A stretch of DNA of 64,000 nucleotides from an uncultured Gammaproteobacteria bacterium. GTDB lineage: Bacteria; Patescibacteriota; Microgenomatia; Levybacterales; UBA12049. Numbering within the stretch: position 1 is the stretch's first letter; every line of letters starts with the position of its first letter. Positions 10,915 to 45,982 of the stretch are shown piece after piece. Position numbers and translations under genes: made by a program. The stretch spans positions 91,575 to 155,574 of the forward strand of contig CAZCYO010000003.1 in NCBI GenBank assembly GCA_964503265.1. The letters are read 5' to 3'. The notes beneath the pieces were generated by a model that saw only the letters and a list, made by a program, of their open reading frames with translations, did not search any database and was not told where the DNA came from.

Positions 10915-10955
10915 ATGATCTTCCGCATATTTGCAACCTGTAGCGATCATGTATA

Positions 10956-23036: not shown

Positions 23037-23480
23037 TTGTTAGTGCAGATGAAATCTATTTATAAACTTCTCGTCACTATTCTCCCATCAGAGTCTGTAT
23101 CCGCACATTGTGATGTGCCGTGCGGTATCTATGATCCAAAAGCTGCGCAAGTGGCTGCATCGACTGTTTTAAAGATGGTCCAGATTATTACTGGTATTGA
23201 TCAAACGAATAAAAATATAAAAGATCGAAACACCTTAATTCGCGCAATAATGACGAAGGAAGAGCACGCACAGAAATGTAAAGAAGAATTACTTATTCTC
23301 TGGACAGATTATTTTAAACCAGAGCATCTCGAGAAATTTCCAAATCTCCATGAAACATTTTGGAATGCGGCAAAGCTTTGTTCGAAAAACAAACAAGATG
23401 TTAGTGAAGAACTGGCGCAACAATTAGTCGATGCAGTCCATGAAATTTCCCACATTTTTGAAGAATCAAAAGCAAAATAA
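23037..23480 (+). CDS. sodN: nickel superoxide dismutase precursor
   Basis: Propeptide ending ...SVSA, then Ni-hook HCDVPCGIYDP (23106-23138). LWTDYFKPEHLEKFPNLH closely matches Streptomyces Ni-SOD. Confidence 0.85.
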   Translation: MLVQMKSIYKLLVTILPSESVSAHCDVPCGIYDPKAAQVAASTVLKMVQIITGIDQTNKNIKDRNTLIRAIMTKEEHAQKCKEELLILWTDYFKPEHLEKFPNLHETFWNAAKLCSKNKQDVSEELAQQLVDAVHEISHIFEESKAK

Positions 23481-23796
23481 TTTCTTCTTTTTTTTACTAT
23501 CACTTTGTCCACTACGATCTTTTACGGTTACCGGTATCAGTATGATACCAACGTATAAAGAGCACGACAAACTTCTCGTGAGCACTCTTCATTATTGGTT
23601 TTTTACACCAAAAATCGGAGACTGTGTCGTACTCACTCATCCTAAGACAAAACAAAAAATAGTTAAACGCATTACTGCCATTGATAAGAAAAAGATTTTT
23701 GTTCTTGGAGATAATACGCGTAACAGTACTGATAGTCGAACCTTCGGATTTATAACGAAGAAACACATTATCGGGAAAGTCATTTATCCTGTATAA
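23431..23796 (+). CDS. sodX: Ni-SOD maturation peptidase (S26 signal-peptidase-like)
   Basis: GISMIPT (Ser nucleophile box), IVKRITAID (Lys box) and GDNTRNSTDSR (box E). It overlaps the sodN 3' end. The start is 23431 or 23440. Confidence 0.7.
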   Translation: MQSMKFPTFLKNQKQNNFFFFLLSLCPLRSFTVTGISMIPTYKEHDKLLVSTLHYWFFTPKIGDCVVLTHPKTKQKIVKRITAIDKKKIFVLGDNTRNSTDSRTFGFITKKHIIGKVIYPV

Positions 23797-24363: not shown

Positions 24364-25974
24364 TTATTGGACTTGCTCAAGCTGTGTGAGAATTGGTTGA
24401 AAAGCTGGATTCTTTTGTACAATTTCTTTTATTCGATTTATAATTTCCTGTTGTTTTACCGTACTATTCTCACCTTTATAGATGGAAAAAAGTTTAAAGT
24501 ATGCCAAGTAAAAATATGGATCTATCGTGAGTGCTGCACGATATTCTTTTTCAGCAGAAACGAGATCTCCCAGATCAGCGTGGGTGTTTGCTAAATTATA
24601 GTGTGTTTGTGGATAGAAATCACCTAACTTAATTGCTTCTTTATACATGATAACTGCTTTGCTTTGTTCCCCAGCGTCTGCATAACTCATCGCGAGATTA
24701 TTATAAATCCGAGCACTTTGTGTGTACTTAATTGTTTGTGAGTAAAACGTAATCGGATCATGCCACTCTGCATTTCGGTACATTGTTCGGATGCTTAATG
24801 CTCCCATAAGCAGAATGATCGTGACAATTAGTATTGCTTGGAAAATTTTAGGGAGATGAGTAAGAAGAAAATAGAAAACATATGAGAAAAAAAGAAAAAA
24901 ACCGACAGATGGATAATAGAAAAAATGCTCAAAGAAAATACCGTTAATTGGAATTATTCCACTAGTTGGAATAAATGCTGTAAAGAAAAAAAGAAATGAA
25001 AACAGCGGAATGACGGATCTATTATACCAATAAAAAGAACCTGCTGCGATTCCACAGATGAAGAGAAGCACTGTTACGGTAAGGAGATTTGGATTCGCTA
25101 CAATATCTGCTGATCGATCAATAAATAATAGTTTCGGATAAAAGATAAGACCAATATACTGTGGAAGGAGGGCTAAAAACGTAATTAACCGAACAAGCAA
25201 ACTATCTGAATAAATATTATGATTATTATAAAAGTTAAGTGTGTTCGCAAAATTAAGAATTGTTAAACGAAGAAAAATATAACCGATATTTATTCCGATA
25301 AATGGTCCAGCAATTTTTAATGATTCACTAATATATTTTTTTGCAATGGTTTTTTTATCAGCCATATGACAAAGAAAAATAATGAGGGGAGTGATTATTG
25401 TTAGTTCTTTAGAGAGAAGCGCACAGATAAAAAATACTACAGCAGCAATTTTCCCACGAAGAGATATGCTAAAAGAAAAATATATAGTGAGTAGCATGAA
25501 AAACATTCCCATCGGATCGCCTCTGCCCGACACATATGCGACAGCTTCAGTTTGAATAGGATGAATGATAAAGAGAATACTTGTCAGTAATGCAATGCTA
25601 TTATTTTTAAATAGTTTAACAAGTAAGATATACAACAAAATTCCAGACCCTGCATGAAAGAGCAGATTCGTCAGATGATAAAGAAACGCTGAATTACCAA
25701 CCAAAAGATGCTCTATTCCAAACGACAACAATAACAGAGGACGATAATAATTACTCACGACTCCTGCTCCTGCATCTACATTTTTAGTGAAAAAATTCAG
25801 GACATCAAATGATTGAACAAAGATGTTTTTATAGAGGAATTGCTCGTCATCATAAAATAGTCCATTTCCAAGCGTATTAGCGTAGACAAAAAACGTGAGA
25901 AAAAAAAGAAACGTTGCGATGTATAGTATGTGAATTTTTTCAAGTTTTTGGAGAATTGGCAGAAGTTCTTTCAT
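24364..25974 (-). CDS. GT-C-like polytopic membrane protein with C-terminal TPR repeats (TMTC/DUF1736-like)
   Basis: N-terminal FVYANTLGNGLFYDDEQFL motif, about 10 TM helices, and a C-terminal TPR region (AMSYADAGEQSKAVIMYKEAIKLGDFYPQTHYNLANTHADLGDLVSAEKEYRAAL). Confidence 0.55.
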   Translation of the reverse strand: MKELLPILQKLEKIHILYIATFLFFLTFFVYANTLGNGLFYDDEQFLYKNIFVQSFDVLNFFTKNVDAGAGVVSNYYRPLLLLSFGIEHLLVGNSAFLYHLTNLLFHAGSGILLYILLVKLFKNNSIALLTSILFIIHPIQTEAVAYVSGRGDPMGMFFMLLTIYFSFSISLRGKIAAVVFFICALLSKELTIITPLIIFLCHMADKKTIAKKYISESLKIAGPFIGINIGYIFLRLTILNFANTLNFYNNHNIYSDSLLVRLITFLALLPQYIGLIFYPKLLFIDRSADIVANPNLLTVTVLLFICGIAAGSFYWYNRSVIPLFSFLFFFTAFIPTSGIIPINGIFFEHFFYYPSVGFFLFFSYVFYFLLTHLPKIFQAILIVTIILLMGALSIRTMYRNAEWHDPITFYSQTIKYTQSARIYNNLAMSYADAGEQSKAVIMYKEAIKLGDFYPQTHYNLANTHADLGDLVSAEKEYRAALTIDPYFYLAYFKLFSIYKGENSTVKQQEIINRIKEIVQKNPAFQPILTQLEQVQ

Positions 25975-29568: not shown

Positions 29569-30726
29569 ATGAGAGGTCGTGCCCAACAGCGCAAAAAGCT
29601 TTTAAAGCGAATTACTATTGTTTTTTTTATTCTTGTCCTGATTTTTTTTGGAAGATTTATCATAGAAGCTATTCGATACTCTCCTGTTTTTGTGCAACTG
29701 GCCACTCATAATTCGATCGACTTAAAAAAAACTGCGGACAATAAGGTGAATCTTCTGATACTTGGTACTGGTGGTGGAACCCATGATGGGCCAAATTTAA
29801 CGGACACGATTATTTTTGCAAATATCGATCCGACACCTGCAAGTGGAAGCGCGAAAGCAACGCTTGTTTCAATTCCTCGTGACTTATGGGTACCTGAACT
29901 TAAAGGGAAAATAAATCGTGCATATTCTGATGGTGAAGATAAAGAAAAAGGTGGTGGATTACTTCTTGCAAAAGCAATGGTTGGAAAAATTGTTAATCAA
30001 AAGATCGATTATGCTATTCGAATTGATTTTGCTGGATTTATCAAAGCTGTTGATGAAGTGGGGGGCTTAGATGTTCAGGTAGATCGTACACTTGACGATT
30101 ATGCATATCCGCTTGAAGGAAAAGAAGATGAAACATGTGGTGTTCCTGACGAAAAAATACAAGAAATTGCCACTGATTCCGCGAAAACTGATCTTGAAAA
30201 GTTCCCATGTCGATACGAACATCTTCATGTCGATTCTGGCAAACAGCATCTCGATGGAGAACTAGCTCTAAAATATGTTCGATCACGACACGCACTTGGT
30301 GCAGAAGGATCAGATTTTGCGCGATCAAAGCGACAGGAAAAAGTTATTAATGCGTTTAAAGATAAGGTGTTTTCAGTTGGAACACTTCTAAATCCTGTAA
30401 AACTATCACAACTATATGAAGTCTTTAAAGGAAGTATTGATACAGATGTTACGCAAGATGAATACGATGACTTTATTAGATTAGCTCAAAAAATGAAGAC
30501 AGGACAAGTTACTAGTTATGTGGTGGATACAGGAGGCAACGAAACAGATCGGCCAGCATTACTTTATAACCCAACTGAGCGTGGAGAAGATACTACTCCT
30601 TTTGGTGGGGCGTGGGTATTAATTCCCACAGCTGGAAATGGTAAATATAATCAAATACAAGCATATGTTGCATGTCTTCTTAAAGGAGGATTATGTACTA
30701 CTTTCTCCTCTAGTCTTCAAAAATAA
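29569..30726 (+). CDS. LCP (LytR-CpsA-Psr) family cell-envelope phosphotransferase
   Basis: N-terminal TM, then VNLLILGTGGGTHDGPNLTDTIIFANID....VSIPRDLWV, characteristic of the LCP domain. Confidence 0.7.
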   Translation: MRGRAQQRKKLLKRITIVFFILVLIFFGRFIIEAIRYSPVFVQLATHNSIDLKKTADNKVNLLILGTGGGTHDGPNLTDTIIFANIDPTPASGSAKATLVSIPRDLWVPELKGKINRAYSDGEDKEKGGGLLLAKAMVGKIVNQKIDYAIRIDFAGFIKAVDEVGGLDVQVDRTLDDYAYPLEGKEDETCGVPDEKIQEIATDSAKTDLEKFPCRYEHLHVDSGKQHLDGELALKYVRSRHALGAEGSDFARSKRQEKVINAFKDKVFSVGTLLNPVKLSQLYEVFKGSIDTDVTQDEYDDFIRLAQKMKTGQVTSYVVDTGGNETDRPALLYNPTERGEDTTPFGGAWVLIPTAGNGKYNQIQAYVACLLKGGLCTTFSSSLQK

Positions 30727-30811: not shown

Positions 30812-33028
30812 CTACAGAGATAGTTTAATTATTGTTGTGTTATTTTTCTTAAAGACTGTATGACCTAATTTTATAAGTTCTTTAGTATTAATTTGATATT
30901 TTTGTTGTTCTAGTTCACCGATATAAATATAACTAATATTATATTTTTTAATTAACGAATTTCTTTTTGCAGTATCAGTAGTATCATATAGTGTTTTTAC
31001 GTCATCAATCCGTGGAGCTGGAATATCATATGTTCCTCTCCATAACCACTCGTGCACAGTCCAGCCCAGTACGGTTGGAAGTCCTGTATTACTTGAGATT
31101 CGCGCATAGTCAGTATAGGAGTCTCCTTGTGCTTCAAGAAGGATTGGTTGACCATATACATTATTTTTTATCCAGCTAATTGCATCATAATCATCTGGGT
31201 ATGTAGTTTTTAAGTAAGTAATTCCATTAAGAGAATAGCTTTTCTGAAGATTATTATAATAAGAAGTGACTGCATAATAAGGATAAGAAAGAACTGATAC
31301 TATGAGTACTGTTGTTATTAAAAAGAAAAAAAAGAAAAGTAATTTATGAAAAAAGATCTTTTTAGTTACTGTTAATATTCGAGTAATTACAAACCCAGAA
31401 ACAAGTGAAAGCAAAATAAAGGCTTGAAACACGAGTTTAAACATCGTATTTGCTCGGTAATGTTCTGGATAAATATCTTTAACATAGATGAATTCAGGTA
31501 TACATATAAGAATAAGTGAAAGTATAATAAGTACAATAATAAAAAAATCAATCTTCTTTTTCTGCTTACTAAATATCATGAAAAGTGTATAGGTAATAAT
31601 AAAGAAAAGAAAAAAACCATACAGAATAAGAAGTTGCCACCATGGTGAATGTTGGGTGTGATTTGCCTCAAAAAGGAGTGGGCCAATTGTTCCTTGTTTA
31701 ACAAGAAAATCAGGAGCAGAAAGCACACCAATACCTGAGACGAATGGCTTAAAGAAAAATGAAAAAGGAAATGAGAATGTAATAAAGCTGACAAATAACA
31801 GAATACAAGATGTTAGTATTTGTTGAATAACATCTGTATGAAATAATTTTTTAACGTTTCCTAAAGGATTTATTTGTGTATCAGAAAATTGTTTACAGGA
31901 AAATATAATCACACCAAGGAGTAAATAAATAAGCCCATCCCATGCATTTGTCATATACATTACACCAAGGAGAAGTCCAACTGTAATTTCCTTGCGAAAG
32001 AAGAGGGAGAGTATTATTTGTAAAAATTTATTCTTTGAATTCTTTATCTCAGGTTGTGGTTTTTGGGGTTCAATAAAAATCGATAGTAGTAATGCAATAG
32101 TAAGCAGTACAAACGGAATGTCTAGTACATGTCCGTGAAGATCAGATACGACCCATGAGTACATAGGAAATTCATGAATAGTATTATAAATGAATCTTGT
32201 AGCATTTGGATACCAATAAGCATTGGGAAATGTATTTGGAGCAAAATTCATTTGCCAAAATGGTTTTGGATGCGATACGTCATATGCAGAAAAGAAGGTA
32301 TATAATACATGGAGATTTCCACTAAATGTTACTAAAAAAGCAGACAGTAGCCCACTAATAATAACTTTCATTTTGCTAATATTGTCTTTTATTAATAATG
32401 TGTACAAATTCCCGCCAATTGAAAATGATGCAGCAAAACATAGTGAAAAAATAGTCGCAATCATCACATTAAATGTAACTGTCGATGGGAGTCCAGAAAG
32501 TTTTGTCAGTACCGCGGTTATAAGGTGTCCAAAATAGTAATAATTAATTGTCAGTGGAGTAAACCACATATCTTTTGGTGGAAAATAATCTGTTCTGAGG
32601 ATTGAATTTATAAATCCAAAATCCATAAACTTTTCAAGTCCATGAATGTCAGGAGAAAACGTTCTAACCCAAGACCAAAGAAAAAGGCCAATAAGAAAAA
32701 GCGTTTCTTCAAAAATGAAAATAGCTATATTTTCCTTAAAGAGTGTGAACACAGATTCTCTTTTTCTTAAGAGAGTATTACTATTGAAAATAAATGCAAG
32801 AGCAATCAATGTGAATATAATAGTTAATTGCGAAAATGGAGCAATATGAAAAATTCCAAGCAAGAAAATAATGTATGAAAGAAAAGCAATTCCAAGAATC
32901 TTAGAGAAAATATATCCTTTATCAAAAAACGATGGGAATAACGAATAAGAAAAAAAAGTGAATGGTAATCCGACTACAAAAATTATCAAAAACCATTGAA
33001 CTATAAGAAATATGTCAGTATTATTCAT
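30812..33028 (-). CDS. large polytopic membrane protein (738 aa), putative GT-C-like glycosyltransferase or membrane assembly factor
   Basis: More than 14 hydrophobic segments and a soluble C-terminal ~190 aa domain. It is the last gene of the 30812-42538 operon. Family not resolved from sequence alone. Confidence 0.4.
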   Translation of the reverse strand: MNNTDIFLIVQWFLIIFVVGLPFTFFSYSLFPSFFDKGYIFSKILGIAFLSYIIFLLGIFHIAPFSQLTIIFTLIALAFIFNSNTLLRKRESVFTLFKENIAIFIFEETLFLIGLFLWSWVRTFSPDIHGLEKFMDFGFINSILRTDYFPPKDMWFTPLTINYYYFGHLITAVLTKLSGLPSTVTFNVMIATIFSLCFAASFSIGGNLYTLLIKDNISKMKVIISGLLSAFLVTFSGNLHVLYTFFSAYDVSHPKPFWQMNFAPNTFPNAYWYPNATRFIYNTIHEFPMYSWVVSDLHGHVLDIPFVLLTIALLLSIFIEPQKPQPEIKNSKNKFLQIILSLFFRKEITVGLLLGVMYMTNAWDGLIYLLLGVIIFSCKQFSDTQINPLGNVKKLFHTDVIQQILTSCILLFVSFITFSFPFSFFFKPFVSGIGVLSAPDFLVKQGTIGPLLFEANHTQHSPWWQLLILYGFFLFFIITYTLFMIFSKQKKKIDFFIIVLIILSLILICIPEFIYVKDIYPEHYRANTMFKLVFQAFILLSLVSGFVITRILTVTKKIFFHKLLFFFFFLITTVLIVSVLSYPYYAVTSYYNNLQKSYSLNGITYLKTTYPDDYDAISWIKNNVYGQPILLEAQGDSYTDYARISSNTGLPTVLGWTVHEWLWRGTYDIPAPRIDDVKTLYDTTDTAKRNSLIKKYNISYIYIGELEQQKYQINTKELIKLGHTVFKKNNTTIIKLSL

Positions 33029-33572
33029 GGTCGTTTTTTATAGCTTGTTCTAGTCGTGAAATTGCGTACATGTTCTTAGTTATTTTTTTAACTATGTTAT
33101 GTTTGTTATACCAATAAAACAACGTATGAGGGTTCTTTTGCGCAACATATACCAGAAGATGGTAGTCATCATCAATATATTTATCAAGATGGAGTGATTT
33201 AATAATGCTATCTTTAAACTTATGGGGTTGTTCGTCTTTATAGTTAAAATACATTTTTGTAAAAAAGCGTGTAAATGCATGTTTTTTAACAAGTTTATTC
33301 GTAGCTGATTCAAGAAAGCTAAATCGACTTGAGATCAAATATAGTTGATCTTTTTTATTTACTATCTTATTGAGTGCTTCAATATTTTCTTTTATCGGGG
33401 GTCTAAATATAGGGAGATGTGTTAGCTTTCTAAATTCTTGCTCAATAGGTGATGGTATCCTATATAGAAGAATATTACTGCTCCTATTTTTATATAATCT
33501 ATCGATAAGCTGCTCAGGAATAAGTGGTGGTGTATTAATAAATACTTTATCTAAATCAAATCCAATTTTCAT
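33021..33572 (-). CDS. HAD-like hydrolase (putative phosphatase)
   Basis: MKIGFDLDKVFIN (motif I DxD), LISSRF (motif II) and KYIDDDYHLL (motif IV-like). Start taken at the ATG ending at 33572. Weak evidence. Confidence 0.3.
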   Translation of the reverse strand: MKIGFDLDKVFINTPPLIPEQLIDRLYKNRSSNILLYRIPSPIEQEFRKLTHLPIFRPPIKENIEALNKIVNKKDQLYLISSRFSFLESATNKLVKKHAFTRFFTKMYFNYKDEQPHKFKDSIIKSLHLDKYIDDDYHLLVYVAQKNPHTLFYWYNKHNIVKKITKNMYAISRLEQAIKNDHE

Positions 33573-33604
33573 ATGTTCAATTGTATCATCCTTATGAGTG
33601 TATA

Positions 33605-35086
33605 TCACATTATTTTCGTTAATTGATATGTATCATAATTATATTTATAATAGGTGCGATTTGGAAATTTATTAAAAATCTTATAATTTTCTTCGTTGAG
33701 GTCTTTTACGTATATAACATCAGTATCAAGAAAAGGAGAGTTTTGCGAAAAAACAGATCCATAGCACCACCAATTGCCGCTACAGTCTTGAATAAATATT
33801 ATAGAGTTATGAATTTTTTGTTTTTTTATTTCTTTTACAATACGATTATCAACAAAATTAAATCCTTTTAGATTGTTTAGTGATAATGGTGTGAAAAAGT
33901 CAGGATTCGTGACAGGAATTATTGAATAGAATCGCATGAGAGAAATCACAACAAGAAAGAACATAAAAATGAAAGTACTCTTTTTAAATCTTTCATAACT
34001 TAATTCTAGCGTTCTGGCCGTGAGAATAAAGGCAAAAGGGGTTATCTCATACCAAAAACGTGGACCATACATGAGAAAGACACCATTATAAAAAAAATAA
34101 GTAATTGGTAGTAGAAAAAGACTAATAAAAAATAACATATCCCAAGAGATTTTTCTTCGAAAAAATAGGAAACCTGTTAATAGGAGTACCGTAATACCTT
34201 GTGGGAGATTATATAATACAGGAAAAAAGTTTTTTGCCAAAATCAGCACATTATTTAATCTTTCACTTATGAATTGGTAAAGTGTCACACGTTGTCCAAA
34301 TCCAAAAATACCCTTATTTACTTCAAAGTACTCAGAAGTGAATGGTGAACTAGTCGTATACGCGTTATATACCATCCATAGTAAAAAAAGTATGCCAAAT
34401 CCTATTAAAAACGATAGTAATGAAGGAATTCGTTCTTTAGTATTTTTTTGCTTTATGTACGTAAGAAGCACAGCACATACGAAAAAGGGAAGAGCAGTTA
34501 GTGGGCGTGTATTAAATAGTAGTCCCATACATACTCCAGAGATAAAAAATAGACTGTATTTATGTTTTTCCAGAGCAAGAATAATACAAAGAACGGAAGT
34601 TATTAGATAAAATGACGCAGTTGTATGGCTCATAAATGAAGCTGAATTCTCTATAAAGAAAGGCGATATAAAAGGAAGTGGAAGAAGAAAAAAAATTGTT
34701 TTTCGAGAATAAAGAATCGAAACAATAATAACAAGTTCAAAAATTGTAAGTGTGCTAACAAGTGGGGGAACAGCATTTGGTATGCCCAATAGTATTCCGA
34801 TTGCTAAAAGTATTGGATGGCCAAAAGGGTACTGAAATAACCACATCCCTCCACTTACAAGAAGTGTTCCATCGAAAAAACGGAAATGGTCTGGATTTGC
34901 GGGTATTGGAAGAATAAGGTGTCCTGACGCAAATATCTTTGCCATAAAAAGATATGCAACAGAATCTGGAACATGAGGAATTCCCTCCAGATAATAAAGA
35001 TTGATATAGAGAAGGTATAAAAAGAGTAATATGAAATAACAAATAAAAAAATAGACTGTAGGTTTTAAGAAAATATGTTTAATCAT
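33605..35086 (-). CDS. GT-C-like polytopic membrane glycosyltransferase
   Basis: 493 aa with about 12 TM segments. The N-terminal architecture resembles the GT39 neighbours, and its start overlaps the upstream gene by 4 nt. Confidence 0.45.
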   Translation of the reverse strand: MIKHIFLKPTVYFFICYFILLFLYLLYINLYYLEGIPHVPDSVAYLFMAKIFASGHLILPIPANPDHFRFFDGTLLVSGGMWLFQYPFGHPILLAIGILLGIPNAVPPLVSTLTIFELVIIVSILYSRKTIFFLLPLPFISPFFIENSASFMSHTTASFYLITSVLCIILALEKHKYSLFFISGVCMGLLFNTRPLTALPFFVCAVLLTYIKQKNTKERIPSLLSFLIGFGILFLLWMVYNAYTTSSPFTSEYFEVNKGIFGFGQRVTLYQFISERLNNVLILAKNFFPVLYNLPQGITVLLLTGFLFFRRKISWDMLFFISLFLLPITYFFYNGVFLMYGPRFWYEITPFAFILTARTLELSYERFKKSTFIFMFFLVVISLMRFYSIIPVTNPDFFTPLSLNNLKGFNFVDNRIVKEIKKQKIHNSIIFIQDCSGNWWCYGSVFSQNSPFLDTDVIYVKDLNEENYKIFNKFPNRTYYKYNYDTYQLTKIM

Positions 35087-36705
35087 TTAAGAATGAGAGA
35101 TTGTATTTGTTGCGGAGACATTCTCGCATTGTTTTCAAAAATGATAACTGGTGGGTGGTCGTAACTTTGAAATGATTCGTCGGCACTATCATCTGAAATC
35201 CCATAAGGGTAGTTAGTAAAGTCTTTTATACGCGAGTAGCCAATATCTCCAGAAAAAAGTTTCTTATAAAATTTTGATGTGTATGGATATGTTTGTGCAT
35301 TATTAAAAATCGAGATATATACTCGTCTACTTGATAAAACAATATAATCACTTTTTGCTACTGTTTCAGAAAGTGTTACTATTTTTGCTTTCGTATCTTG
35401 ATCATATACTGTCAATTGCACATTGGAGAATGAGTTTTGTTGTGAGGTCTGTGAAAAGTGTAATGGTAATGGATCGTCCCAATGTTCTGTTGCTATAACA
35501 GAATTTCTAGGGAGAGTTTGATACATCCAATTAGAAGCTGCGATTCGTGTGTTCGGCTTAAGATATACATGCATGAAAAGGAGTCCTTGTAGGACTATTA
35601 AAAATAGCAAGACACTACTGATATATGTTCGTAGTCGACTGAGGAAGATTGCTGCAAATATAGCAAGAAATGGAGTTAGAAGTAAATAGTATCGAGAAAA
35701 TTTAGCGTACCACTCCCCAGTCCATACAAAATATAATAAAGGAAAAATACATAAAAAAAGTAGTATTGTTTTTACATTTTTCTGTTTTTTTACCATAATC
35801 ATACCCAACATGGAACAACATAGAGATATTAAGCCAAATGTGAATGGAAAAACTTTTAGTAGCTGATATAGATAGGGGATACTCCCTTCATAAATAATGA
35901 CGAATGGTGGTTTGAAATTTCCGTATGTGACTCCTTGCATATATGATTGTTCTTTTGAAAAGTTAACCCAGTCAATTAGTTGATATGGAGCCATAACAAT
36001 ACCAATAAAAAAAGAAGATAACAGAAAAACAAATAGTGAGATAGTAATATTTACTCGTTCACGTTTTTGTTCGATAAAAAGAAGGTAGTATGCGATTAAA
36101 GGAAAAATACTAAAAGTTAATCCAATAATTTTGGTTGCGTAGGCAAGACCCAAAAAAAATCCTATCGGTAGCCCATAATACAATTTTTTCTCTTTATATA
36201 ATTTATTACTACTGTATATAAGTGTTATTAACAAAAATATAAGTAAACTTTCTGTTGTGTTAAAGTGTGCATACTGAATGCTGCCAGGTGTAACAGCAAA
36301 AATGAGCGCAGCAATAATCCCAACCTTTTCAGATAAAAATTGTTTCGTAACTAAATACAGGAGTATTATTGTTATTGAGCTGAAAAAGGCCGAGATCATT
36401 CGACTCACAATAAGTAAATCAAGTGATGGTATAAAAACGCTTGCAACAACTTTATACAAGTAAAGTGGAAAACTTCCATAGTAAAACATGTGAGGATTAA
36501 GGGGTGATTGCGGTGAAAGAAATTCATTAAAAGAATGTGGAATAGATAAGTTCGCAGCATTAATATACAGTCTTTCATCTGGATGTAGATACTGCCCCAT
36601 ATCCCAGTTAAGGTTATAAAACCTCAATATTGTTCCAAGAAGAAAGATAAGAAGAATTGCCAATTGATGTTTATTAATGCTAATTGTAGTATGTTTATTT
36701 TTCAT
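35083..36705 (-). CDS. GT39-family lipid-carrier-dependent glycosyltransferase
   Basis: FYNLNWDMGQYLHPDERLYINAAN (first-loop DE/HPDER motif), polytopic, with a C-terminal extracytoplasmic domain. Start taken at MKNKHTTIS, which gives an 11-nt overlap with the upstream paralog. The ORF-track start is 36783. Confidence 0.6.
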   Translation of the reverse strand: MKNKHTTISINKHQLAILLIFLLGTILRFYNLNWDMGQYLHPDERLYINAANLSIPHSFNEFLSPQSPLNPHMFYYGSFPLYLYKVVASVFIPSLDLLIVSRMISAFFSSITIILLYLVTKQFLSEKVGIIAALIFAVTPGSIQYAHFNTTESLLIFLLITLIYSSNKLYKEKKLYYGLPIGFFLGLAYATKIIGLTFSIFPLIAYYLLFIEQKRERVNITISLFVFLLSSFFIGIVMAPYQLIDWVNFSKEQSYMQGVTYGNFKPPFVIIYEGSIPYLYQLLKVFPFTFGLISLCCSMLGMIMVKKQKNVKTILLFLCIFPLLYFVWTGEWYAKFSRYYLLLTPFLAIFAAIFLSRLRTYISSVLLFLIVLQGLLFMHVYLKPNTRIAASNWMYQTLPRNSVIATEHWDDPLPLHFSQTSQQNSFSNVQLTVYDQDTKAKIVTLSETVAKSDYIVLSSRRVYISIFNNAQTYPYTSKFYKKLFSGDIGYSRIKDFTNYPYGISDDSADESFQSYDHPPVIIFENNARMSPQQIQSLILK

Positions 36706-38308
36706 TAATACGATAAATGATAACGGTAGGCCTATCAAAGACAGATGAGGTTTCTTCATAACGAAATATCGGATCACCTCCATACGTAATCAAACAGTAT
36801 ATATCGCATGGAGTTTCATATACTTTTTCAAAAACTTTGCTTGTATCAAGCGTAGCATAAAATGCATTTCCTGCGGGAAAAGAAATAGGTGAAGAAAGGC
36901 GGGTTTTTAGTATTCTTTGACTTGGGAGTATCAGAAATTCAGATTTTTTTAAGATACCTTCTAGATTATCTTTCGCCTGAGCGTTTGTTTCTAATTCATA
37001 AAAGTTAAATATATTTATATTTGGAAAACTGTTTGTAAAAGGGAGAGTTCCTAAGTCATATGCTTCAGTTAACATTCTGCTATCTTGAGGAATATGTTTT
37101 GTTGCCCATGTTAAAGCACTAATCCGAGTATCAGGATGATTATAAACAGTAACAACATACGAGCTACTCCAAATTATGCTAGATAGTATAGATAGAATAA
37201 GTGTACCCTTCCAAAGTGCTTTTTTTAAAATAGTATCTTTGTATCTTTTTTGTATATCTACCAGAAAAAATGAAATTGATAGATAAAAAAAGGGAATTGT
37301 TGGAACCATATAGCGAGTCCATTTTACGAATAGCAGTGCTTGGGAAAAAAAGTAAAGTAACAAAAATAGTATGAGTATTTTATAATAGAATAAAGAAGGA
37401 TTTTTCTTACTAGCATTCATAACTAACGATAATATCCCAACACAAAACAAAATAGGGTTGAGTAAGAATGGAAACACCTGTGTAAATTGATAAATAATTG
37501 GAATAGTTTTATTAAAACCCCCTGAATAAAATACCGGGAGTGCTCCTGTTGCTACAGCTGATTCATACCTGATACTGGATATAAAGGAATTACTATCAAA
37601 TAGAACAAATGGGTTTGTAATAAGAAACATCACACCAATAACAGCAATAGATAAAAAAAAGAGATGAAGTGCTCTCATTAGTATTCTTTCTTTGTGCTCC
37701 TTAATAATTGCAATAGATGCTACAAGCGGAATAATAAGAAGTGAAAGTGACGAGATCTTCACTGAAATAAGTATGCCAACGATTAGTAAAAGAAAAAAAT
37801 AGTTTTTGAGACTTTTATTTTTGAAGAGTACTATAAATGCATAAAAAAGCAGAAGATAAAAGAATGATAACCACATTTCAAATGTTCCAAAGTGTGCATA
37901 CTGAATAAATCCAATACTAAATGTACAAAAAAAACTTGCCAATAATCCCGAAGTAGTACTGTGAAGTTTCTTGCCTATATGAAATGTGAGAATTATTGTG
38001 GCAAGCGCTAAAATACTACTAATTATTCTACTTGCAATAATAGCTTCCTCAATTGAAACGAAAAAAGAAATATGACTTATCCCGTGTATCAGTAACGCTG
38101 CTATATATATAGTATAAATAGGTAATGAACCATATGCGAAAAAATGAGGATTAAGTTGTGATGGGAAAATAATATTATTGACGCTATATGCAATATTTCT
38201 TTCGTCAGGATTGAAATAGAATGGGGATCCCCACGTAAGATTATATGTAAAGAGTAATCCTGCAACGGTGAGCAGTAGACCTAATATAAGATACTCTTGC
38301 GGTTTCAT
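36695..38308 (-). CDS. GT39-family lipid-carrier-dependent glycosyltransferase (paralog)
   Basis: TYNLTWGSPFYFNPDERNIAYSV is the same loop motif. Same architecture as the downstream paralog. Confidence 0.6.
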   Translation of the reverse strand: MKPQEYLILGLLLTVAGLLFTYNLTWGSPFYFNPDERNIAYSVNNIIFPSQLNPHFFAYGSLPIYTIYIAALLIHGISHISFFVSIEEAIIASRIISSILALATIILTFHIGKKLHSTTSGLLASFFCTFSIGFIQYAHFGTFEMWLSFFYLLLFYAFIVLFKNKSLKNYFFLLLIVGILISVKISSLSLLIIPLVASIAIIKEHKERILMRALHLFFLSIAVIGVMFLITNPFVLFDSNSFISSIRYESAVATGALPVFYSGGFNKTIPIIYQFTQVFPFLLNPILFCVGILSLVMNASKKNPSLFYYKILILFLLLYFFSQALLFVKWTRYMVPTIPFFYLSISFFLVDIQKRYKDTILKKALWKGTLILSILSSIIWSSSYVVTVYNHPDTRISALTWATKHIPQDSRMLTEAYDLGTLPFTNSFPNINIFNFYELETNAQAKDNLEGILKKSEFLILPSQRILKTRLSSPISFPAGNAFYATLDTSKVFEKVYETPCDIYCLITYGGDPIFRYEETSSVFDRPTVIIYRINEK

Positions 38309-38313
38309 AAAAG

Positions 38314-39600
38314 TTACACATGTGATTTGTTAACGATCTCTGCAACATCTTTGCCTAGCTTAACGGCATAATTTGTCCCTCTATCCCAAGGATAAACTTG
38401 TTCAATATTTGCAAGAAAAACATGTGATAGCGGGGTTTTCATAGGTGGAATCATCTCAGAATAGTTTGTTGGAACAATTGGTTGTGCGAATGGTGCCTTA
38501 AACACTTCAAAATCGATAAGTGATTTTCTATAGTCAGGGTTTATTCGACGAAGGAGTGGGTCATAGAGTGATAACAACTTCTTTTTATCCCATGTTAATT
38601 TATCATCTGTTTTAATGTAATTTCCTATATAAACGATATGTTCATTATCATAGTGTTTTTTATTCATAAAATTGGTATGTTCGATAATCGCCATAATTGG
38701 AGTATCTTTTTCACATATACTCAACCAATAGGTGTTATTTGGAAAGAATGATTTTTTTAATCGTAAAACCAGATTTGTTGCACTTATTCCTTTGAGTTTA
38801 ACAAGTCGCTTCGTATAGTCTTCAGGAAGTTGGGGAGTTATTTTAAGGAAAAAATATGAGGGAAGTGTCACAATTGCAGCATCAAACATTGATTTCAATT
38901 GTTTTCCTGCAGCGTTTTTATAAGATAATGTCACATACCGTTCTTGGGTTAGAGAAAGTATTTCTGAATTAAATATTATTTTCCCGTCTTTTTTTTCGAT
39001 TTCTTGTGCGAGACGATTTGCAAAATGCAAGAAACCACCTTCTGGATATGCAACAGTTGGAGTTCTTTTTGTAATTCGTGTCCAAAACCAGACAAGTGAT
39101 ATCTCTTTAGCATACGGTCCCATTTTATTTACGAGCTGAGGCCACCACAATGTTTCCCAAGCTCTTTTCCCCATCAGCTTAGGTAATATATCGATTGCTT
39201 TTACTTTTTCAAGAGGTTGCCAAAATGGGTTAAATCGGAGAAACCCGAGAGTTACACCCATGCGGATTCTATCGATAATTGGAAGTTTTTTAAATAAAAG
39301 TACAGCTTTAGGCGAATCAAGTTGGTAAAATGTATTGTCTACAAATACTGATGTATTAATTCGTCTTGTTAAGACATTATGATTAATTTCTTTAGCAAGA
39401 CCAAGGATATCATCATCATTAGTGAACCAATGATGATAATGATGTTCAAGTGTCCAATCCCAGTTTTTTTCTTGATATCCTAGAGCTAGCCCACCAGGTT
39501 TTGATTCTTTTTCAAAGATTGTTACATCATGACCCTTTTTTTGTAATGCGATTGCTGCTGAAAGGCCTGTAAAGCCTGCACCGATAATTGCTACTTTCAT
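38314..39600 (-). CDS. FAD-dependent oxidoreductase (amine-oxidase/protoporphyrinogen-oxidase/phytoene-desaturase-like fold)
   Basis: [39 protein letters not shown] (dinucleotide-binding Rossmann with GxGxxG...E...GG). The C-terminal [26 protein letters not shown] is typical of this family. Confidence 0.6.
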
Positions 39601-41030
39601 ATGCTTTTTTGCGTTAGAGCAAATAATATCATACCTACTCCAACAAGTACTACACCAAATATAGTTAAAGCTATACCAGATGAGCTGCCTGTAGCTGGAA
39701 GCGGTGTAACTGCACGAATAATTGTGGGAGTAGGCGTACTTGTTGGGACAAATATTGTTGGGGTTACCACGATAGTTGTTGGAATAAGTGTTGGTGTTGG
39801 AACAGTAGTTGTTACTATAGTAGGTGTTGCAGTCGGTATTTGAGTTGGAACACGAGTTGGAGTCGGTGAAGGTGTTGCTGTCGGTTTGGTAGGTGAAACT
39901 GATGGTTGTGTTGACTTGCTTCCTTCTGCATATACAACAAAAGATTGGGTAAGAGTTTTTATTAATCCTTTTGCGTCTTTTGTCACGATAGTAATTGTAT
40001 GGTTTCCAGGAGCAAGTGGTTGCTTTGGTCGATATTTCCAGTTTCCTTGAGAATCTGCTTTGATAGTATCTTTAATGACTGTTTCAGAATGAATTTCAAC
40101 TGATATAGATTGGTTGGCTACACCGGTTCCTGTAAAGGTGGGTTGTGTATCTGAAAACTCTTCTTCTTTTTTAGGAGATAAGATAGTAGGGGTACCAGCA
40201 CTAACTTCTTTTGTACTAAATGAAGGGAAATCAGATTTTTCACTTGCGGATGTCGATGCGACAGGTGCTATTGGTAGTGTTGGATTTAATGTGAAATCGT
40301 AGTCCTTAGAAAGCATAGCAGGAGGAACTGGGTTGGTTTGGTTTGCTAAAACAGAAATATGTGAAACTTCAGTCGAACTAAAAGCAAGAATTTTTAGAGT
40401 AGATGCTTCACTTAAAGGAATGTATGTAGAGAGATCAGAAGATCGTAGTGCATTTAATGGAATCACGTAGCTACCATCATCTTTTGTTATGGTTGAAAGC
40501 ACTTCGCTTCCCGTCGTAGTTACATATACTATTGAATCTTTTGCCGGATCTCCTGTACTTGTCAGAATAGTTCCAACTAATGGAAGCTGTGTGCTTGGAT
40601 TTTGTGTAAGTTTTTTTGATGTAGTCACAGTGTAGGGACTTGAATCCTTCAAATAGGTATTTACACCAGAAATTATAGAAAATACATAGTTTTGGTTTTC
40701 TGAAAGCCCAGTTACTGTAATGTAGTGAAGTGTATATGCTTGTGGAGTACCTGATTGTTTATCTCTATCATCAAGAGATACTTTTCCGAATTTTTGATCT
40801 GATCCATAGCTAATACTAGCATTTACTTTATCGGTTGTTTTGAATGAGACGGTAAAGCTACTTTCAGTAATGTTTGAGATTCTTACATCTTGTGGCGTAT
40901 TTCCTGGAGCAGCTCGGCTTGTGAATATAGTTTTAAATTGAAGTAAATAAGAAGTTAAGCCAACTCCTACAAGAAGCATCAATATGCCTAGTAAAGATGG
41001 TATTCGTTTATTCCAAATAGAGTTTCTCAT
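39597..41030 (-). CDS. LPXTG-type (LPATG) sortase-anchored surface protein with fibronectin-III/Ig-like domains and a PT-rich stalk
   Basis: Signal peptide, an fn3-like N-terminal domain and a 65-aa PT stalk. The C-terminal PLPATGSSS (nt 39683-39703, verified), a 24-aa hydrophobic segment and the TQKSI tail form a cell-wall sorting signal. Confidence 0.6.
39719..39917. repeat. Pro/Thr-coding low-complexity repeat (LPATG protein stalk)
   Basis: Encodes [47 protein letters not shown].... Confidence 0.5.
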
Positions 41031-41353
41031 AATTCTAATACTGTCGTAGTTGTGGGACTAGTTATTGGTGTTATATTTTCTGTTGGAGTTGGACTAGGTA
41101 AAATAACTGGCGTTGGTGAAGTGCTTGCAGTCGCTGATGCATTTTTTATCGTGAATAATGGAGTAACTTGCGAACGCTCTTTAAGTTTTTCAAGTGTTTG
41201 CGTATCGAACGCAGGAGTAATGGGTTTTGACTGTAATATAACTGATGCACTTAATTTTGACGCGTTTTGAATATGCCATAAATTTGCCGCTATCCAGATA
41301 ACGATAACTATGAACGACGATACAACGATGATAAAAAGATCTTTTTGTTTCAT
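41027..41353 (-). CDS. small bitopic membrane protein with PT-rich C-terminus
   Basis: N-terminal TM (LFIIVVSSFIVIVIWIAANLW) and C-terminal ASTSPTPVILPSPTPTENITPITSPTTTT. It is translationally coupled to both neighbours. Confidence 0.4.
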   Translation of the reverse strand: MKQKDLFIIVVSSFIVIVIWIAANLWHIQNASKLSASVILQSKPITPAFDTQTLEKLKERSQVTPLFTIKNASATASTSPTPVILPSPTPTENITPITSPTTTTVLEL

Positions 41354-41991
41354 GGTATAAAGTAAGAACTAGCTTGAATGCTTACTGTTGGATTAGCGCT
41401 TTGTTTTATATCGGTAACAAATGATAGTGATTGAATAGTTACAATCCGATCAAAGGAAATGAAAGAAGAGATAAACGATAAAAGATTATCTTGGGATCCC
41501 TGAACTCGAACAAGAAATGAGAATGTTGGAGCTTGGATTGTTTTACCTTTTTTTATGAGACCATGTTTCGGTGAATAAAGTGAAACATCACTCACTTGCA
41601 ATGCTAGTAGCGATACATTTGTTTTTTTACTTATCCCTTGAATTTTTCCGATAAGGTCAGTGACATTTGGATTACTAGGAATAGCTGTTTCAACGTAGAT
41701 TATGTCTGGCTGAATTGTTGTGTATACTTGTTGAAGTGTTGATAAGTTTTTAATTTTTGTTTTTAACGCACTATCTGCTGCTTGGTTATCAGAAAGTTGC
41801 TTTGTCAGATCAGTAATGGTGCTGAGTGTAGGACTTATAGCAAAAATACTAAAAAAAGAAAGTGCAAAAAACGTTAAAATCAGCGTCCCATATTCTTTAA
41901 CTCTCTCTCTCTGAAGTGTCGGCAGATCACGTAATACTTCAAGATATCGTTTTCGAGATAATCCAGATAAGAAACTTTGCTTTGTGTCCAT
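41350..41991 (-). CDS. PilO-like bitopic membrane protein (type IV pilus alignment subcomplex-like)
   Basis: Short cytoplasmic N-terminus, a TM (LILTFFALSFFSIFAI), a coiled coil and a periplasmic domain. Start taken at MDTKQSF, and the ORF-track start is 42111. The assignment rests on architecture only. Confidence 0.35.
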   Translation of the reverse strand: MDTKQSFLSGLSRKRYLEVLRDLPTLQRERVKEYGTLILTFFALSFFSIFAISPTLSTITDLTKQLSDNQAADSALKTKIKNLSTLQQVYTTIQPDIIYVETAIPSNPNVTDLIGKIQGISKKTNVSLLALQVSDVSLYSPKHGLIKKGKTIQAPTFSFLVRVQGSQDNLLSFISSFISFDRIVTIQSLSFVTDIKQSANPTVSIQASSYFIP

Positions 41992-41992
41992 A

Positions 41993-42538
41993 TTATTTTT
42001 TAATTTCTTTAGTAACTGCTGTAATAGTAACGTTAATAATTGCTGTTGAGGTTTTATTTTCAATTTTATCGACACTGACACTCGCGACTTTTTTATAGCT
42101 TTTGACAGCATTGATAATTGATGTGACAGCGAGAATTGATTTTACGTCACAGTCAATCCGAAAAGATGTATCATTTATCGTGAGAATATTTATGGTTGGA
42201 ACATCTTTGAGTATGCCCAATAAATCTTTTGCGATCTCATATTTTTCATTTGATGAACCATCAAGCATTTTTATGGCTGATAGTTTATCTTGAAGATTTC
42301 GGAATTCAACTTCTGATGAGGAGAATGCTTGAATGTACTGTTGGTCTCTTTTAATTTCATCATGAAGATTTACAAGTTGTCGATCGAGTGAGAAACGTGA
42401 GATGAATGTAATAAGTGCAATAGTCTCAGTTAAAATAACAAGAAAACGACCAATTGTGAGTGCCCATTCTATAAAACTATCAAAGGAACTTTTATTGCCT
42501 GAAGACACAAGATTTATCGAGTGAGCAGAATTTGACAT
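41993..42538 (-). CDS. PilN-like bitopic membrane protein
   Basis: N-terminal SINLVSS resembles the PilM-binding INLLP motif of PilN. It is followed by a TM (FLVILTETIALITFI), a coiled coil and an alpha/beta periplasmic domain. Confidence 0.45.
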   Translation of the reverse strand: MSNSAHSINLVSSGNKSSFDSFIEWALTIGRFLVILTETIALITFISRFSLDRQLVNLHDEIKRDQQYIQAFSSSEVEFRNLQDKLSAIKMLDGSSNEKYEIAKDLLGILKDVPTINILTINDTSFRIDCDVKSILAVTSIINAVKSYKKVASVSVDKIENKTSTAIINVTITAVTKEIKK

Positions 42539-42547: not shown

Positions 42548-42576
42548 AGTCTAGGTATATTTGAGGCTTTTGTCAA
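42548..42576 (-). promoter_or_regulatory. candidate promoter of the pilN-led operon (TTGACA-N17-TAGACT on the minus strand)
   Basis: Reverse-complement -35 TTGACA at 42571-42576 and -10 TAGACT at 42548-42553. The transcript would start ~5 nt before the ATG (near-leaderless). Confidence 0.3.
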
Positions 42577-44875: not shown

Positions 44876-45982
44876 GTGAGAAGAATTATCCTTATTGTCA
44901 GTATCGTCGTTTTTGTCGGTTTTATTTTTATATTATTAAATACAATTCGACAGAAAGTTCGCAACGATATAAATACGCCTCTAGATGTGAGTCAGGAGAT
45001 TGGTCCGACTGTTTATCCAACTGTTGATGTAAAGAAAAATCCAAACGAAAAAAAATCACTTTTTATTCCTTACTGGACAATTAACTCAACTAGGATTGCT
45101 CCTGAAGATTATGATACTGCAATTTATTTTGGTGTTACAACAAACGAAACTGAAGTAAATAAGTCAGATGTCGGTTATATAAATCTTTCGACTTTTCTAA
45201 AGAATACATCAACCTGGCAAAAACATCTTTTAACATTACGAATGTTGGACAGTAAAATTAACTTCGCTATTTTAGAAGATGAAAAAAAACAAAAATCGGT
45301 AATTACAGACTTTATTTCGATTGCTAGAGAAAATAATTTTGATGGAGTTGTATTAGATCTTGAAATATCTGCTCTTCCTTTTGATTCGCTTATCTCACAA
45401 ATAAATAGTTTTACAAAAAAGATGTCCTCAGCATCCCATGATGCAAATCTATCATTTACAATGATGATATATGGAGATGCGTTGTACAGAGTTCGGCCAT
45501 TTGATATTAAAACGCTTTCTTCTTATTCTGACCAGCTTTATATCATGGCATATGATTTTTCAAAGGCTAAAGGAAATCCTGGACCAAATTTCCCCCTTAG
45601 TGGTAAAGATACATATGGGTATGATTACGCAACCTTGATTAAAAATTTTTTACAAGGAAGTTCTCCTAAAAAACTAACGGTAGTATTTGGTATGTATGGA
45701 TATGATTGGACTGTCGATGATAATAATGTATCGATTACTTCTATTGCCGAGCCATTAAGTATGAATAAAATAGAACAAAAGATTATATCGAAGTGCGCAT
45801 ATACATCCTGTACATGGGAAAGAGATCCTGATGCCGGAGAAATAAAAGCAGAGTATAAAGATAGCAATAACATAAAACATATTGTATGGTTTGAAGATAC
45901 AGAATCTGTTAGTCGTAAAATGGATTTTCTTAAAAAACACGGAATAACTTCCTTCAGTTTCTGGGCATATTCGTATTTTTAA
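44876..45982 (+). CDS. membrane-anchored glycoside hydrolase family 18 (chitinase-like) domain protein
   Basis: N-terminal TM, FDGVVLDLE (DxxDxDxE-like with the catalytic Glu retained), LYIMAYDF (MxYD) and C-terminal ITSFSFWAYSY. Confidence 0.6.
   Translation: MRRIILIVSIVVFVGFIFILLNTIRQKVRNDINTPLDVSQEIGPTVYPTVDVKKNPNEKKSLFIPYWTINSTRIAPEDYDTAIYFGVTTNETEVNKSDVGYINLSTFLKNTSTWQKHLLTLRMLDSKINFAILEDEKKQKSVITDFISIARENNFDGVVLDLEISALPFDSLISQINSFTKKMSSASHDANLSFTMMIYGDALYRVRPFDIKTLSSYSDQLYIMAYDFSKAKGNPGPNFPLSGKDTYGYDYATLIKNFLQGSSPKKLTVVFGMYGYDWTVDDNNVSITSIAEPLSMNKIEQKIISKCAYTSCTWERDPDAGEIKAEYKDSNNIKHIVWFEDTESVSRKMDFLKKHGITSFSFWAYSYF

Follow-up and report, generated by a model that had tools for sequence, protein, structure and literature searches.

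The subject of this study is a locus of ten genes on the minus strand, at positions 30812-42538 of a 64-kb stretch of DNA, the whole of which we call the window. We read it, with about even confidence, as one operon of a Levybacteria-like bacterium of the Candidate Phyla Radiation (CPR) that is built from two separable modules. Module 1 comprises a PilN-like protein, a PilO-like protein, a bitopic protein of 108 aa and a stalked fn3/Ig protein of 477 aa; this orphan association of PilN/PilO-type proteins with a surface protein is the more unusual element of the locus. Module 2 comprises a flavoprotein, three PMT_2-type GT-C transferases, a HAD-motif protein and a DUF2298 protein. The feature that stands above chance is the conservation of gene order, unlike the spacing of the genes. 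Gene order, assignments to families and folds, motifs and their conservation are demonstrated below. The genes and the elements within them are the following.

41993-42538, minus strand: PilN-like bitopic protein, 181 aa, with an S-I-N-L-V motif at aa 7-11 (~42506-42520)
41350-41991, minus strand: PilO-like bitopic protein, 213 aa, from an internal ATG start as in public gene calls
41027-41353, minus strand: small bitopic protein, 108 aa, with an N-terminal transmembrane segment (TM), a conserved 'PI.P.FD..TI..LK.R' and a low-complexity S/T/P-rich tail
39597-41030, minus strand: secreted surface protein, 477 aa, with signal peptide, fn3-like domain, Big_13 Ig-like domain, Pro/Thr (PT) stalk, LPATG, TM and short basic tail
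~39702-39917, minus strand: PT stalk of the surface protein
39687-39701, minus strand: LPATG of the surface protein
38314-39600, minus strand: cytoplasmic FAD enzyme, 428 aa, of the phytoene-desaturase (PDS)/protoporphyrinogen-oxidase (PPOX)/amine-oxidase fold, with a helical insertion at aa 108-178
36695-38308, minus strand: GT-C transferase A, 537 aa, PMT_2 type, with loop-1 NPDER at ~38198-38212
35083-36705, minus strand: GT-C transferase B, 540 aa, PMT_2 type, with loop-1 HPDER at ~36571-36585; weakly similar to STT3 and Agl23
33605-35086, minus strand: GT-C-like transferase C, 493 aa, divergent (PMT_2 22.0 bits, under the cut-off)
33021-33608, minus strand: soluble HAD-motif protein, 195-aa open reading frame (ORF), likely start at ATG 33572 giving 183 aa, with DxD at 33549-33557
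30812-33028, minus strand: DUF2298/TIGR03662 'Chlor_Arch_YYY' polytopic protein, 738 aa, with the YYY motif at 32534-32542

All ten ORFs are intact and run head to tail at the coordinates that the initial annotation of this DNA had given, and its description of one co-oriented, tightly packed unit holds, the starts being confirmed and the order recurring in dozens of CPR genomes. Public gene calls on the identical contig use the same starts (the PilO-like protein of 213 aa from 41991, the second GT-C of 540 aa from 36705). The GC content of the window is about 0.36 and its gene content is CPR-like, including a ribosomal protein cluster; a tRNA scan and an Rfam scan of the 64 kb gave no matches. 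The junctions between the genes and the putative promoter are as follows.

41993/41991, minus strand: PilN-like/PilO-like junction, 1-nt spacer (TAA-T-ATG)
41353/41350, 41030/41027, 39600/39597 and 35086/35083, minus strand: junctions with a 4-nt overlap each
38314/38308, minus strand: flavoprotein/GT-C A junction, 5-nt gap
36705/36695, minus strand: GT-C A/GT-C B junction, 11-nt overlap
33608/33605, minus strand: GT-C C/HAD protein junction, 4-nt overlap solely with a GTG start
33028/33021, minus strand: HAD protein/DUF2298 junction, 8-nt overlap
42548-42576, minus strand: promoter-like site TTGACA-17-TAGACT, 9 nt before the first ATG, a consensus match only

Junctions of at most 11 nt had been proposed throughout. 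The overlaps listed for them can be read from the coordinates; the 38314/38308 gap was missing from that list, and at 33608/33605 a gap of 32 nt after GT-C C is, judging from orthologue lengths, more likely than a 4-nt overlap, the HAD-protein orthologues being 179-188 aa long with a start equivalent to M13 (ATG 33572). The promoter that had been placed at ~42550-42576 does coincide with the consensus match given above; the divergent EF-G gene begins at 42723. Inside the operon, 61 promoter-like sites were counted against 59.3 +/- 7.2 in shuffles, and 6 terminator-like sites against 5.1 +/- 3.1, counts that neither support nor refute internal signals. Because tight gene junctions are a general feature of this compact genome, junction spacing alone carries little weight.

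Gene order was compared over the contexts of six PilN homologues and 69 further loci from species-representative genomes, on which we mapped hidden Markov models (HMMs) built from the window proteins. The 50 non-redundant loci extending at least 7 kb beyond the gene of the surface protein (Big13) were taken as informative. The order PilN-PilO-small protein-Big13 was already present in the contexts of the six PilN homologues. Over all loci, the core genes were recovered in the same order 81 times for PilN, 77 for PilO, 76 for the small protein that follows PilO and 75 for Big13, and the four-gene core was present wherever the contig was long enough. The loci belong mainly to Levybacteria, and also to Roizman-, Gottesman-, Woese-, Dojka- and Saccharibacteria-type genomes, and the gene order persists in relatives with just 26-45% identity in the PilN-like protein. 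The anticipated synteny across CPR genomes was thus observed.

The genes beyond the core are less constant. In 26 of the 50 informative loci, the gene immediately after Big13 is that of the flavoprotein, and a GT-C gene lies within 9 kb in 26, 9 of which have no adjacent flavoprotein; DUF2298 was found in 19 and LCP (LytR-CpsA-Psr) in 22. The full order was recovered in three contexts that had been seeded independently, from the flavoprotein, and the 4-nt overlap between the surface-protein and flavoprotein genes is conserved in loci L004, L006, L008 and L012. In a second architecture, Big13 is followed by a convergent GT-C gene with PMT, PMT_2 and PMT_4TMC matches and then by the block LCP-TIM-UvrD-FemAB. 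Extra genes of the island elsewhere code for an HpnA-like SDR (12 loci), GT1, GT2, a methyltransferase or a PQQ propeller. In the window, the far boundary of the glycosylation genes is a convergent gene:

29569-30726, plus strand: LCP (LytR-CpsA-Psr) ligase gene

It matches PF03816 with 98.5 bits against 24.6 (E 5e-28) and TIGR00350 with 90.2 bits against 62.3, and the block LCP-TIM-UvrD-FemAB lies beyond the island in 22 of the 50 informative loci. This synteny marks the glycosylation genes as a variable island, bounded on one side by the conserved core and on the other by the conserved LCP block. The initial annotation had overlooked this convergent boundary, the murJ flank of the core and a wall glycopolymer as an equally fitting target. 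Its single dedicated module is not supported: synteny splits the locus in two, and the core stands without adjacent glycosylation genes in 15 of the 50 informative loci. We found neither an unrelated family behind the PilN/PilO-like proteins, nor membrane proteins foreign to the GT-C superfamily, nor a loss of gene order, nor evidence of signals splitting the unit, all of which the initial annotation had counted against itself.

Upstream of the core, a MurJ-type flippase gene lies at most 1.5 kb from PilN in 45 of 64 loci (39 divergent, 6 on the same strand; for example L011:7985-9640 and L009:2950-4638), a position held by EF-G in this window. Further upstream, at 8-9 kb from PilN in at least 13 loci, is a UbiA-family gene adjoining a WecA-like GT4 (L011:179-2174, plus strand). 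The UbiA protein of the relatives scores 229 bits against NF008978, decaprenyl-phosphate phosphoribosyltransferase, with a cut-off of 207; it stays under the cut-off of NF008977 (229.2 against 234) and far under that of NF008976. The NF008978 match suggests that polyprenyl-phospho-pentose donors may be used in Levybacteria.

In canonical PilN, an N-terminal INLLP motif binds PilM. The S-I-N-L-V of the window protein corresponds to this motif, on a short cytoplasmic N-terminus followed by one TM; N9 and L10 are invariant in the orthologue alignment A1, and a motif of INL type ([ILVM]N[LIVMF]) is kept in 69 of 71 PilN-like orthologues. We found 39 homologues of the 181-aa protein. PF05137 is matched by 9 of 17 aligned orthologues (26-77% identity; best E 2.8e-11, with 1.4e-10 and 1.8e-5 in L072 and L080), and the window protein, unlike canonical PilN, is below the Pfam threshold, without a match at E<=0.1. 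The PilO-like protein passes PF04350 (23.1 bits, cut-off 22, over aa 110-250 of the long ORF), and PilO matches recur among its orthologues; hhalign related the PilN-like and PilO-like proteins to each other at 75%. Both names given by the initial annotation can thus be retained. The small 108-aa protein matched no family in Pfam or NCBIfam, and hhalign detected no kinship with PilN or PilO.

Module 1 can be compared with type IV pilus loci, which in CPR, including Saccharibacteria TM7x, have pilM-pilN-pilO together (PMC6744442, PMC12206443). It resembles the series PilM-PilN-PilO-PilP(-PilQ) in having PilN/PilO-family bitopic proteins ordered N then O, in the INL(L/V) motif at the N-terminus of the PilN-like protein, and in having a small bitopic and a large envelope protein after PilO, in the positions of pilP and pilQ. 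It differs in that the fourth gene encodes an fn3/Ig protein of the sortase-signal type instead of a PilQ secretin, in being set among murJ, LCP and FemAB, and in that no pilM, ATPase, platform or pilin genes lie nearby in about 70 loci. Neither the screened window ORFs nor any inspected flank yielded pilM, pilB, pilC or pilT, a prepilin motif was absent from the 64-kb window, and the inspected flanks showed no prepilin; the co-location with pilM, pilB, pilC and prepilins that marks a type IV pilus machinery locus thus fails in the window and in these flanks.

The surface protein matches Big_13 (E 1.2e-10) and, weakly, fn3 and Pur_ac_phosph_N. Its C-terminus consists of LPATG, 26 residues (SSS, then a hydrophobic segment) and QKSI. 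It passes the LPXTG-anchor model TIGR01167 (19.4 bits against 15.9) and stays under the cut-off of Pfam Gram_pos_anchor (16.1 against 20); signal peptide, motif, hydrophobic segment and positive tail together make up the architecture of an LPXTG sortase substrate, so that its earlier description as an fn3-like protein with a PT stalk and an LPATG-TM-tail ending proved accurate. All orthologues retain a Pro/Thr/Ser-rich stalk and a C-terminus in which a hydrophobic segment and a basic tail follow a short motif, and the stalk is present with or without adjacent GT-C genes. Among 62 orthologues, the C-terminal motifs were PG[NS] (25), P[TVL][SAT]G (18), LPx[TA][GA] (7), xPxTG (6) and others (6). 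The LPATG signal is therefore real in the window protein but not general, canonical LPXTG being the minority form (13 of 62).

The sorting motif is lineage-dependent (LPxTG, PG(N/S)S or P(T/V)(S/A)G) while stalk, TM and basic tail are constant, a variation that may reflect different sortase specificities or another processing enzyme. Neither a sortase nor a TLxTC motif was detected in the 64-kb window; sortase is reported to be nearly ubiquitous in Microgenomates (PMC6744442). The layout of FnIII domains and C-terminal TM recalls PamR (WP_260763282.1), the anchor of Pam pili, a comparison made by layout. Pam pili are chaperone-usher-like, restricted to CPR, known from Saccharimonadia and Microgenomatia, and encoded near ATP synthase genes (bioRxiv 10.64898/2026.03.03.709456). 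Unlike Pam, module 1 has PilN/PilO, which that paper does not mention, and we set aside a Pam pilus identity for this locus because the operon content differs. Neither the CPR pilus loci nor the Pam operon contains the present arrangement.

The first product of module 2 passes NCBIfam PRK07233 (360 bits, cut-off 252), and its GxGxxG FAD-binding fold, together with full-length HMM and fold matches, assigns it to the flavin amine-oxidase/PPOX/phytoene-desaturase proteins (PF01593; PRK07233), in agreement with the amine-oxidase-fold FAD enzyme announced earlier. The family is large, with 6553 homologues at E<1e-10, the top 120 of which are all at least 59% identical. Two narrower identities were rejected. 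The name protoporphyrinogen oxidase, given by JGI to homologues, does not apply: the protein reaches 30.2 bits against the TIGR00562 equivalog cut-off of 97.85, over its N-terminus only, and its context consists of envelope genes in every locus. A DprE1-like identity was rejected on fold, the protein having no FAD_binding_4 match and belonging to the amine-oxidase/PDS class and not to VAO. In locus L046, the flavoprotein is fused in frame to a GT-C as a 979-aa protein (L046:8022-10967, plus strand).

Neither the flavoprotein nor the HAD-motif protein has a signal peptide or TM. The HMM matches of the latter are weak (HAD_PNKP E 0.03, under the cut-off). In 12 orthologues, D18-L19-D20 is invariant, the K-V after it nearly so, and ISSR, PHK and DDD are conserved; this invariant DxD bears out the label HAD-like.

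GT-C A and GT-C B are paralogues (hhalign 100%). They match PMT_2 (PF13231) with 31.1 bits against 26.1 and with 44.2 bits, respectively, and GT-C B also matches STT3 (E 6e-4); against TIGR03663 (Agl23), it reaches 19.8 bits where the cut-off is 126.25. GT-C C is related to A and B at 93-96% by hhalign; its gene is present in only 5 loci, and an SDR epimerase gene takes its place in 12. The loop-1 motifs NPDER and HPDER reported earlier are conserved in the orthologues, with an invariant PDE, and this loop is predicted to face outward because it is placed after TM1 behind a Lys-rich N-terminus. These proteins belong to the GT-C superfamily by their fold, by a polytopic N-terminal module and by the conserved acidic motif of outward loop 1.

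The initial annotation had gone further and called them GT39. The window proteins have no match to PF02366 or PMT_4TMC (PF16192) and match PMT_2 alone, although some of their orthologues carry precomputed PMT matches. Because the A/B profile searched against PDB finds STT3A (E 0.01) and ArnT (0.016) weakly and no Pmt, GT-C superfamily membership is supported and GT39 membership is not. Single-sequence phmmer searches of PDB gave no matches for GT-C A, GT-C B or the DUF2298 protein, nor did the DUF2298 profile.

The last gene had been described simply as coding for a 738-aa polytopic membrane protein, which is correct but overlooked its identity: it scores 499.7 bits against TIGR03662 (cut-off 300.25) and matches PF10060 with E 2e-99. 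Its N162-Y-Y-Y-F-G-H168 is invariant, F166 nearly so. Compared with the GT-Cs by hhalign, it gave 56% with small locus-derived alignments and 77% with larger ones. Fold comparison shows that the DUF2298/TIGR03662 protein belongs to the GT-C fold. TIGR03662 and TIGR03663 form a gene pair in Archaea and Chloroflexi, of which Agl23 is a candidate hexose-P-dolichol flippase or user of this lipid (PMC11182771). The window resembles this pair in having a YYY-motif protein above the cut-off in the same operon as GT-Cs, one of them weakly Agl23-like; it differs in the level of the Agl23 match (19.8 against 126 bits) and in its CPR setting with flavoprotein, HAD and PilN/PilO genes. DUF2298 had only a passing mention, in two papers, in the literature that we found, and publications on DUF2298, TIGR03662/3, CPR phosphoribosyltransferase and desaturase-family polyprenol reductases did not describe the arrangement.

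The window has six GT-C-like genes in its 64 kb. A polytopic protein of 536 aa (24364-25974, minus strand) combines an N-terminal 'FYDDEQF' loop with C-terminal TPR, a GT-C-plus-TPR (TMTC-like) layout of which only the TPR part matches any model; its gene adjoins FemAB and UvrD. At 9247-12040 (plus strand), a PMT_2-like polytopic protein (22.6 bits, under the cut-off) is followed by DsbB-like and DsbA-like genes.

Systems based on GT-C enzymes follow a three-part logic, in which the donor is prepared on the inner face of the membrane before transfer outside. On this model, we infer the interactions, donor, acceptor and role of the flavoprotein as follows. Module 1 would be an ancient, stand-alone envelope complex: its two bitopic PilN/PilO-type proteins would form a membrane scaffold, whose cytoplasmic INL peptide would dock an actin-like PilM-type partner encoded elsewhere and whose outer domains would hold both the small protein and the surface protein with its stalk. 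Module 2 would be a lineage-variable glycosylation island dependent on polyprenyl-phosphate sugars. At the cytoplasmic face, the HAD-motif protein as phosphatase and the flavoprotein as a monotopic PDS/PPOX-fold enzyme may complete or modify a lipid-linked donor; after flipping, the four GT-C-fold transferases (A, B, C and DUF2298) may transfer sugars outside the membrane. The acceptor would be an envelope component: the Ser/Thr-rich stalks of the proteins of module 1 or, alternatively, a glycopolymer of the wall that LCP then ligates to peptidoglycan. A dedicated O-glycosylation of the stalked protein is possible, and a wall-glycopolymer pathway fits the gene content equally well; we lean slightly towards glycan decoration of the surface protein of module 1, given the translational coupling between the modules.

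Several observations weigh against this reading. In 15 of the 50 informative loci, all from distant lineages, none of the modelled glycosylation genes lies within 9 kb and the PT stalk is retained, so that neighbouring GT-C genes cannot be predicted from the stalk. The window yielded no polyprenyl-phosphate sugar synthase (GT2), flippase, sortase or pilM. Since GT-C genes are abundant here, some of their adjacency could be inherited chance. The flavoprotein-GT-C fusion of L046 is a single case that could be due to a lost stop codon or a sequence error, and it gives a weak hint of coupling only, because in L048, a close relative, a stop codon separates the two parts.

The first competing explanation is the display system that the initial annotation had in mind, in which a GT39-type Pmt mannosylates the PT stalk of the LPATG protein, a sortase anchors it and PilN/PilO are accessory. 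Actinobacterial O-mannosylation relies on Ppm1 and Pmt (GT39), for example in Streptomyces coelicolor (PMC5882110), and the window shares with it GT-C enzymes that have an acidic loop-1 motif and are predicted to act outside the membrane, with a polyprenyl-phosphate sugar as putative donor and Ser/Thr/Pro-rich secreted proteins as putative targets. The presence of stalk and sorting signal in all orthologues, the translational coupling of the surface-protein gene to the glycosylation genes and the reported near ubiquity of sortase in Microgenomates (PMC6744442) all agree with such a system. Moreover, loci without flavoprotein and DUF2298 have a GT-C with PMT, PMT_2 and PMT_4TMC matches adjoining the surface-protein gene, and this enzyme matches the NCBIfam 'protein O-mannosyltransferase' model; yet the match, as scored in L011, is of 100 bits where the cut-off is 800. 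The window enzymes themselves miss PF02366 and PMT_4TMC, with STT3 and ArnT as nearest solved relatives by profile, four GT-Cs with a flavoprotein and a phosphatase exceed what O-mannosylation needs, and neither a Ppm1-like synthase nor a sortase was found in the window. With canonical LPXTG in just 13 of 62 orthologues and a core devoid of adjacent GT-C genes in 15 of 50 loci, we regard dedicated O-mannosylation as doubtful. In Actinomyces oris, the LCP enzyme LcpA glycosylates the LPXTG protein GspA, which SrtA, a sortase, then anchors. The window has a comparable set, an LPXTG-type protein, a predicted lipid-carrier glycan and an LCP enzyme encoded together, but its sorting motif is variable among relatives, GT-Cs dominate, and action of LCP on a protein is not indicated.

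Module 2 could instead make a cell-wall glycopolymer by an arabinan-like route with no specific tie to module 1, which we hold possible at a tentative level. UbiA would make polyprenyl-phospho-ribose-5-phosphate, the HAD protein would strip the 5-phosphate, the flavoprotein (with the SDR in many relatives) would convert the sugar, the GT-Cs would polymerise it outside and LCP would ligate the product to peptidoglycan. The mycobacterial arabinan pathway consists of Rv3806c, Rv3807c, DprE1/DprE2, AftA-D/Emb and Lcp1, and the gene content found here parallels that of arabinogalactan synthesis step by step, with a flavoenzyme, a phosphatase, several GT-Cs and an LCP ligase, the last as a conserved boundary. 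The UbiA of relatives passes one NCBIfam phosphoribosyltransferase model (NF008978) and stands beside a WecA-like GT4 in at least 13 loci, the HpnA-like SDR lies inside the island in 12, and island content varies with lineage as in polysaccharide loci. Unlike the mycobacterial enzymes, however, the flavoprotein has the PDS/PPOX and not the VAO fold of DprE1 and the phosphatase is of HAD and not of PAP2 type; neither UbiA nor a DprE2-like SDR is in the window, and the same UbiA fails the NF008977 and NF008976 cut-offs and is found whether or not the island has the flavoprotein. Nor does this route account for the conserved 4-nt overlap that couples the island to the surface-protein gene. Alternatively, module 1 could be a type IV pilus alignment subcomplex whose genes lie away from pilM, pilB, pilC and the pilins. 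In a cell lacking an outer membrane, the small and the stalked Ig proteins would then stand in for PilP and PilQ and form a collar across the wall, and the glycosylation genes would be mere neighbours. PilN/PilO family membership, the PilM-binding motif, an order that mirrors pilN-pilO-pilP-pilQ and the near universality of type IV pili in CPR (PMC6744442) speak for it. We nevertheless consider it rather unlikely: no pilM, pilB, pilC, pilT or prepilin was found in the window or inspected flanks, canonical CPR pilus loci have their own pilM-pilN-pilO (PMC12206443, PMC6744442), and module 1 is usually flanked by genes for the cell wall or for housekeeping (murJ in 45 of 64 loci, LCP, FemAB). Finally, dense packing and inherited synteny in small genomes could have produced the arrangement without functional meaning, as junctions are tight genome-wide, GT-C genes frequent and the full arrangement mostly confined to related Levybacteria-type lineages. 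This is very unlikely given that the order survives a drop of PilN-like identity to ~40%, that two distinct island architectures each put a GT-C beside the surface-protein gene and that the stop-start overlap between the modules is conserved.

Returning to the two-module reading, a bolder version of it, which we think quite improbable, would make module 1 an unrecognised trans-envelope machine of single-membrane CPR, in which a PilM-docking PilN/PilO scaffold serves no pilus but positions and holds a wall-spanning glycoprotein at sites of wall synthesis near MurJ, FemAB and LCP. The highly conserved flavoprotein would be a missing bacterial enzyme that tailors the polyprenyl carrier or oxidises its sugar, so that the GT-C battery would draw on a donor pool of its own; this battery includes DUF2298, a family also present in Archaea and Chloroflexi. 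CPR bacteria account for a large part of bacterial diversity, and the biochemistry of their envelopes is almost uncharted. The four-gene module, conserved across Microgenomates and some other CPR, places PilN/PilO-type proteins outside any pilus locus. The GT-C fold assignment of DUF2298/TIGR03662 extends equally to the archaeal and Chloroflexi members, and a flavoprotein family of several thousand members, now mislabelled 'protoporphyrinogen oxidase', is tied by gene order to GT-Cs in its top-scoring Levybacteria/Roizmanbacteria-type relatives. The hint of polyprenyl-phospho-pentose donors would bring these organisms close to mycobacteria in this respect.

Some neighbouring genes of the window and of the compared loci are also worth recording. 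A GH18 (chitinase-like) gene at 44876-45982 (plus strand) lies between fusA (EF-G) and tuf (EF-Tu), in the otherwise universal str operon region, and this insertion is conserved in the nearest relatives (L001, L004, L034, L046-L048). At 23037-23796 (plus strand), a nickel superoxide dismutase gene, in a CPR genome, overlaps an S26-type peptidase gene, an association also found in L011; the peptidase is probably the maturation protease of the dismutase. A SET-domain protein (4061-4798, minus strand) and a lamin-tail-domain protein (5441-6667, minus strand) are encoded near a transglycosylase-like gene. In L008, two adjoining genes (L008:3615-6646, minus strand) carry ATP-citrate-lyase-like domains, Citrate_synt with Ligase_CoA and Citrate_bind with ATP-grasp, a pair unexpected in the reduced metabolism of CPR. 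Lastly, many records of metagenome-assembled genomes labelled 'uncultured Gammaproteobacteria' or 'Pseudomonadales' (L017, L020, L023, L028 and others) bear the CPR-type locus with its neighbours, and these organism labels look like placeholders or errors.

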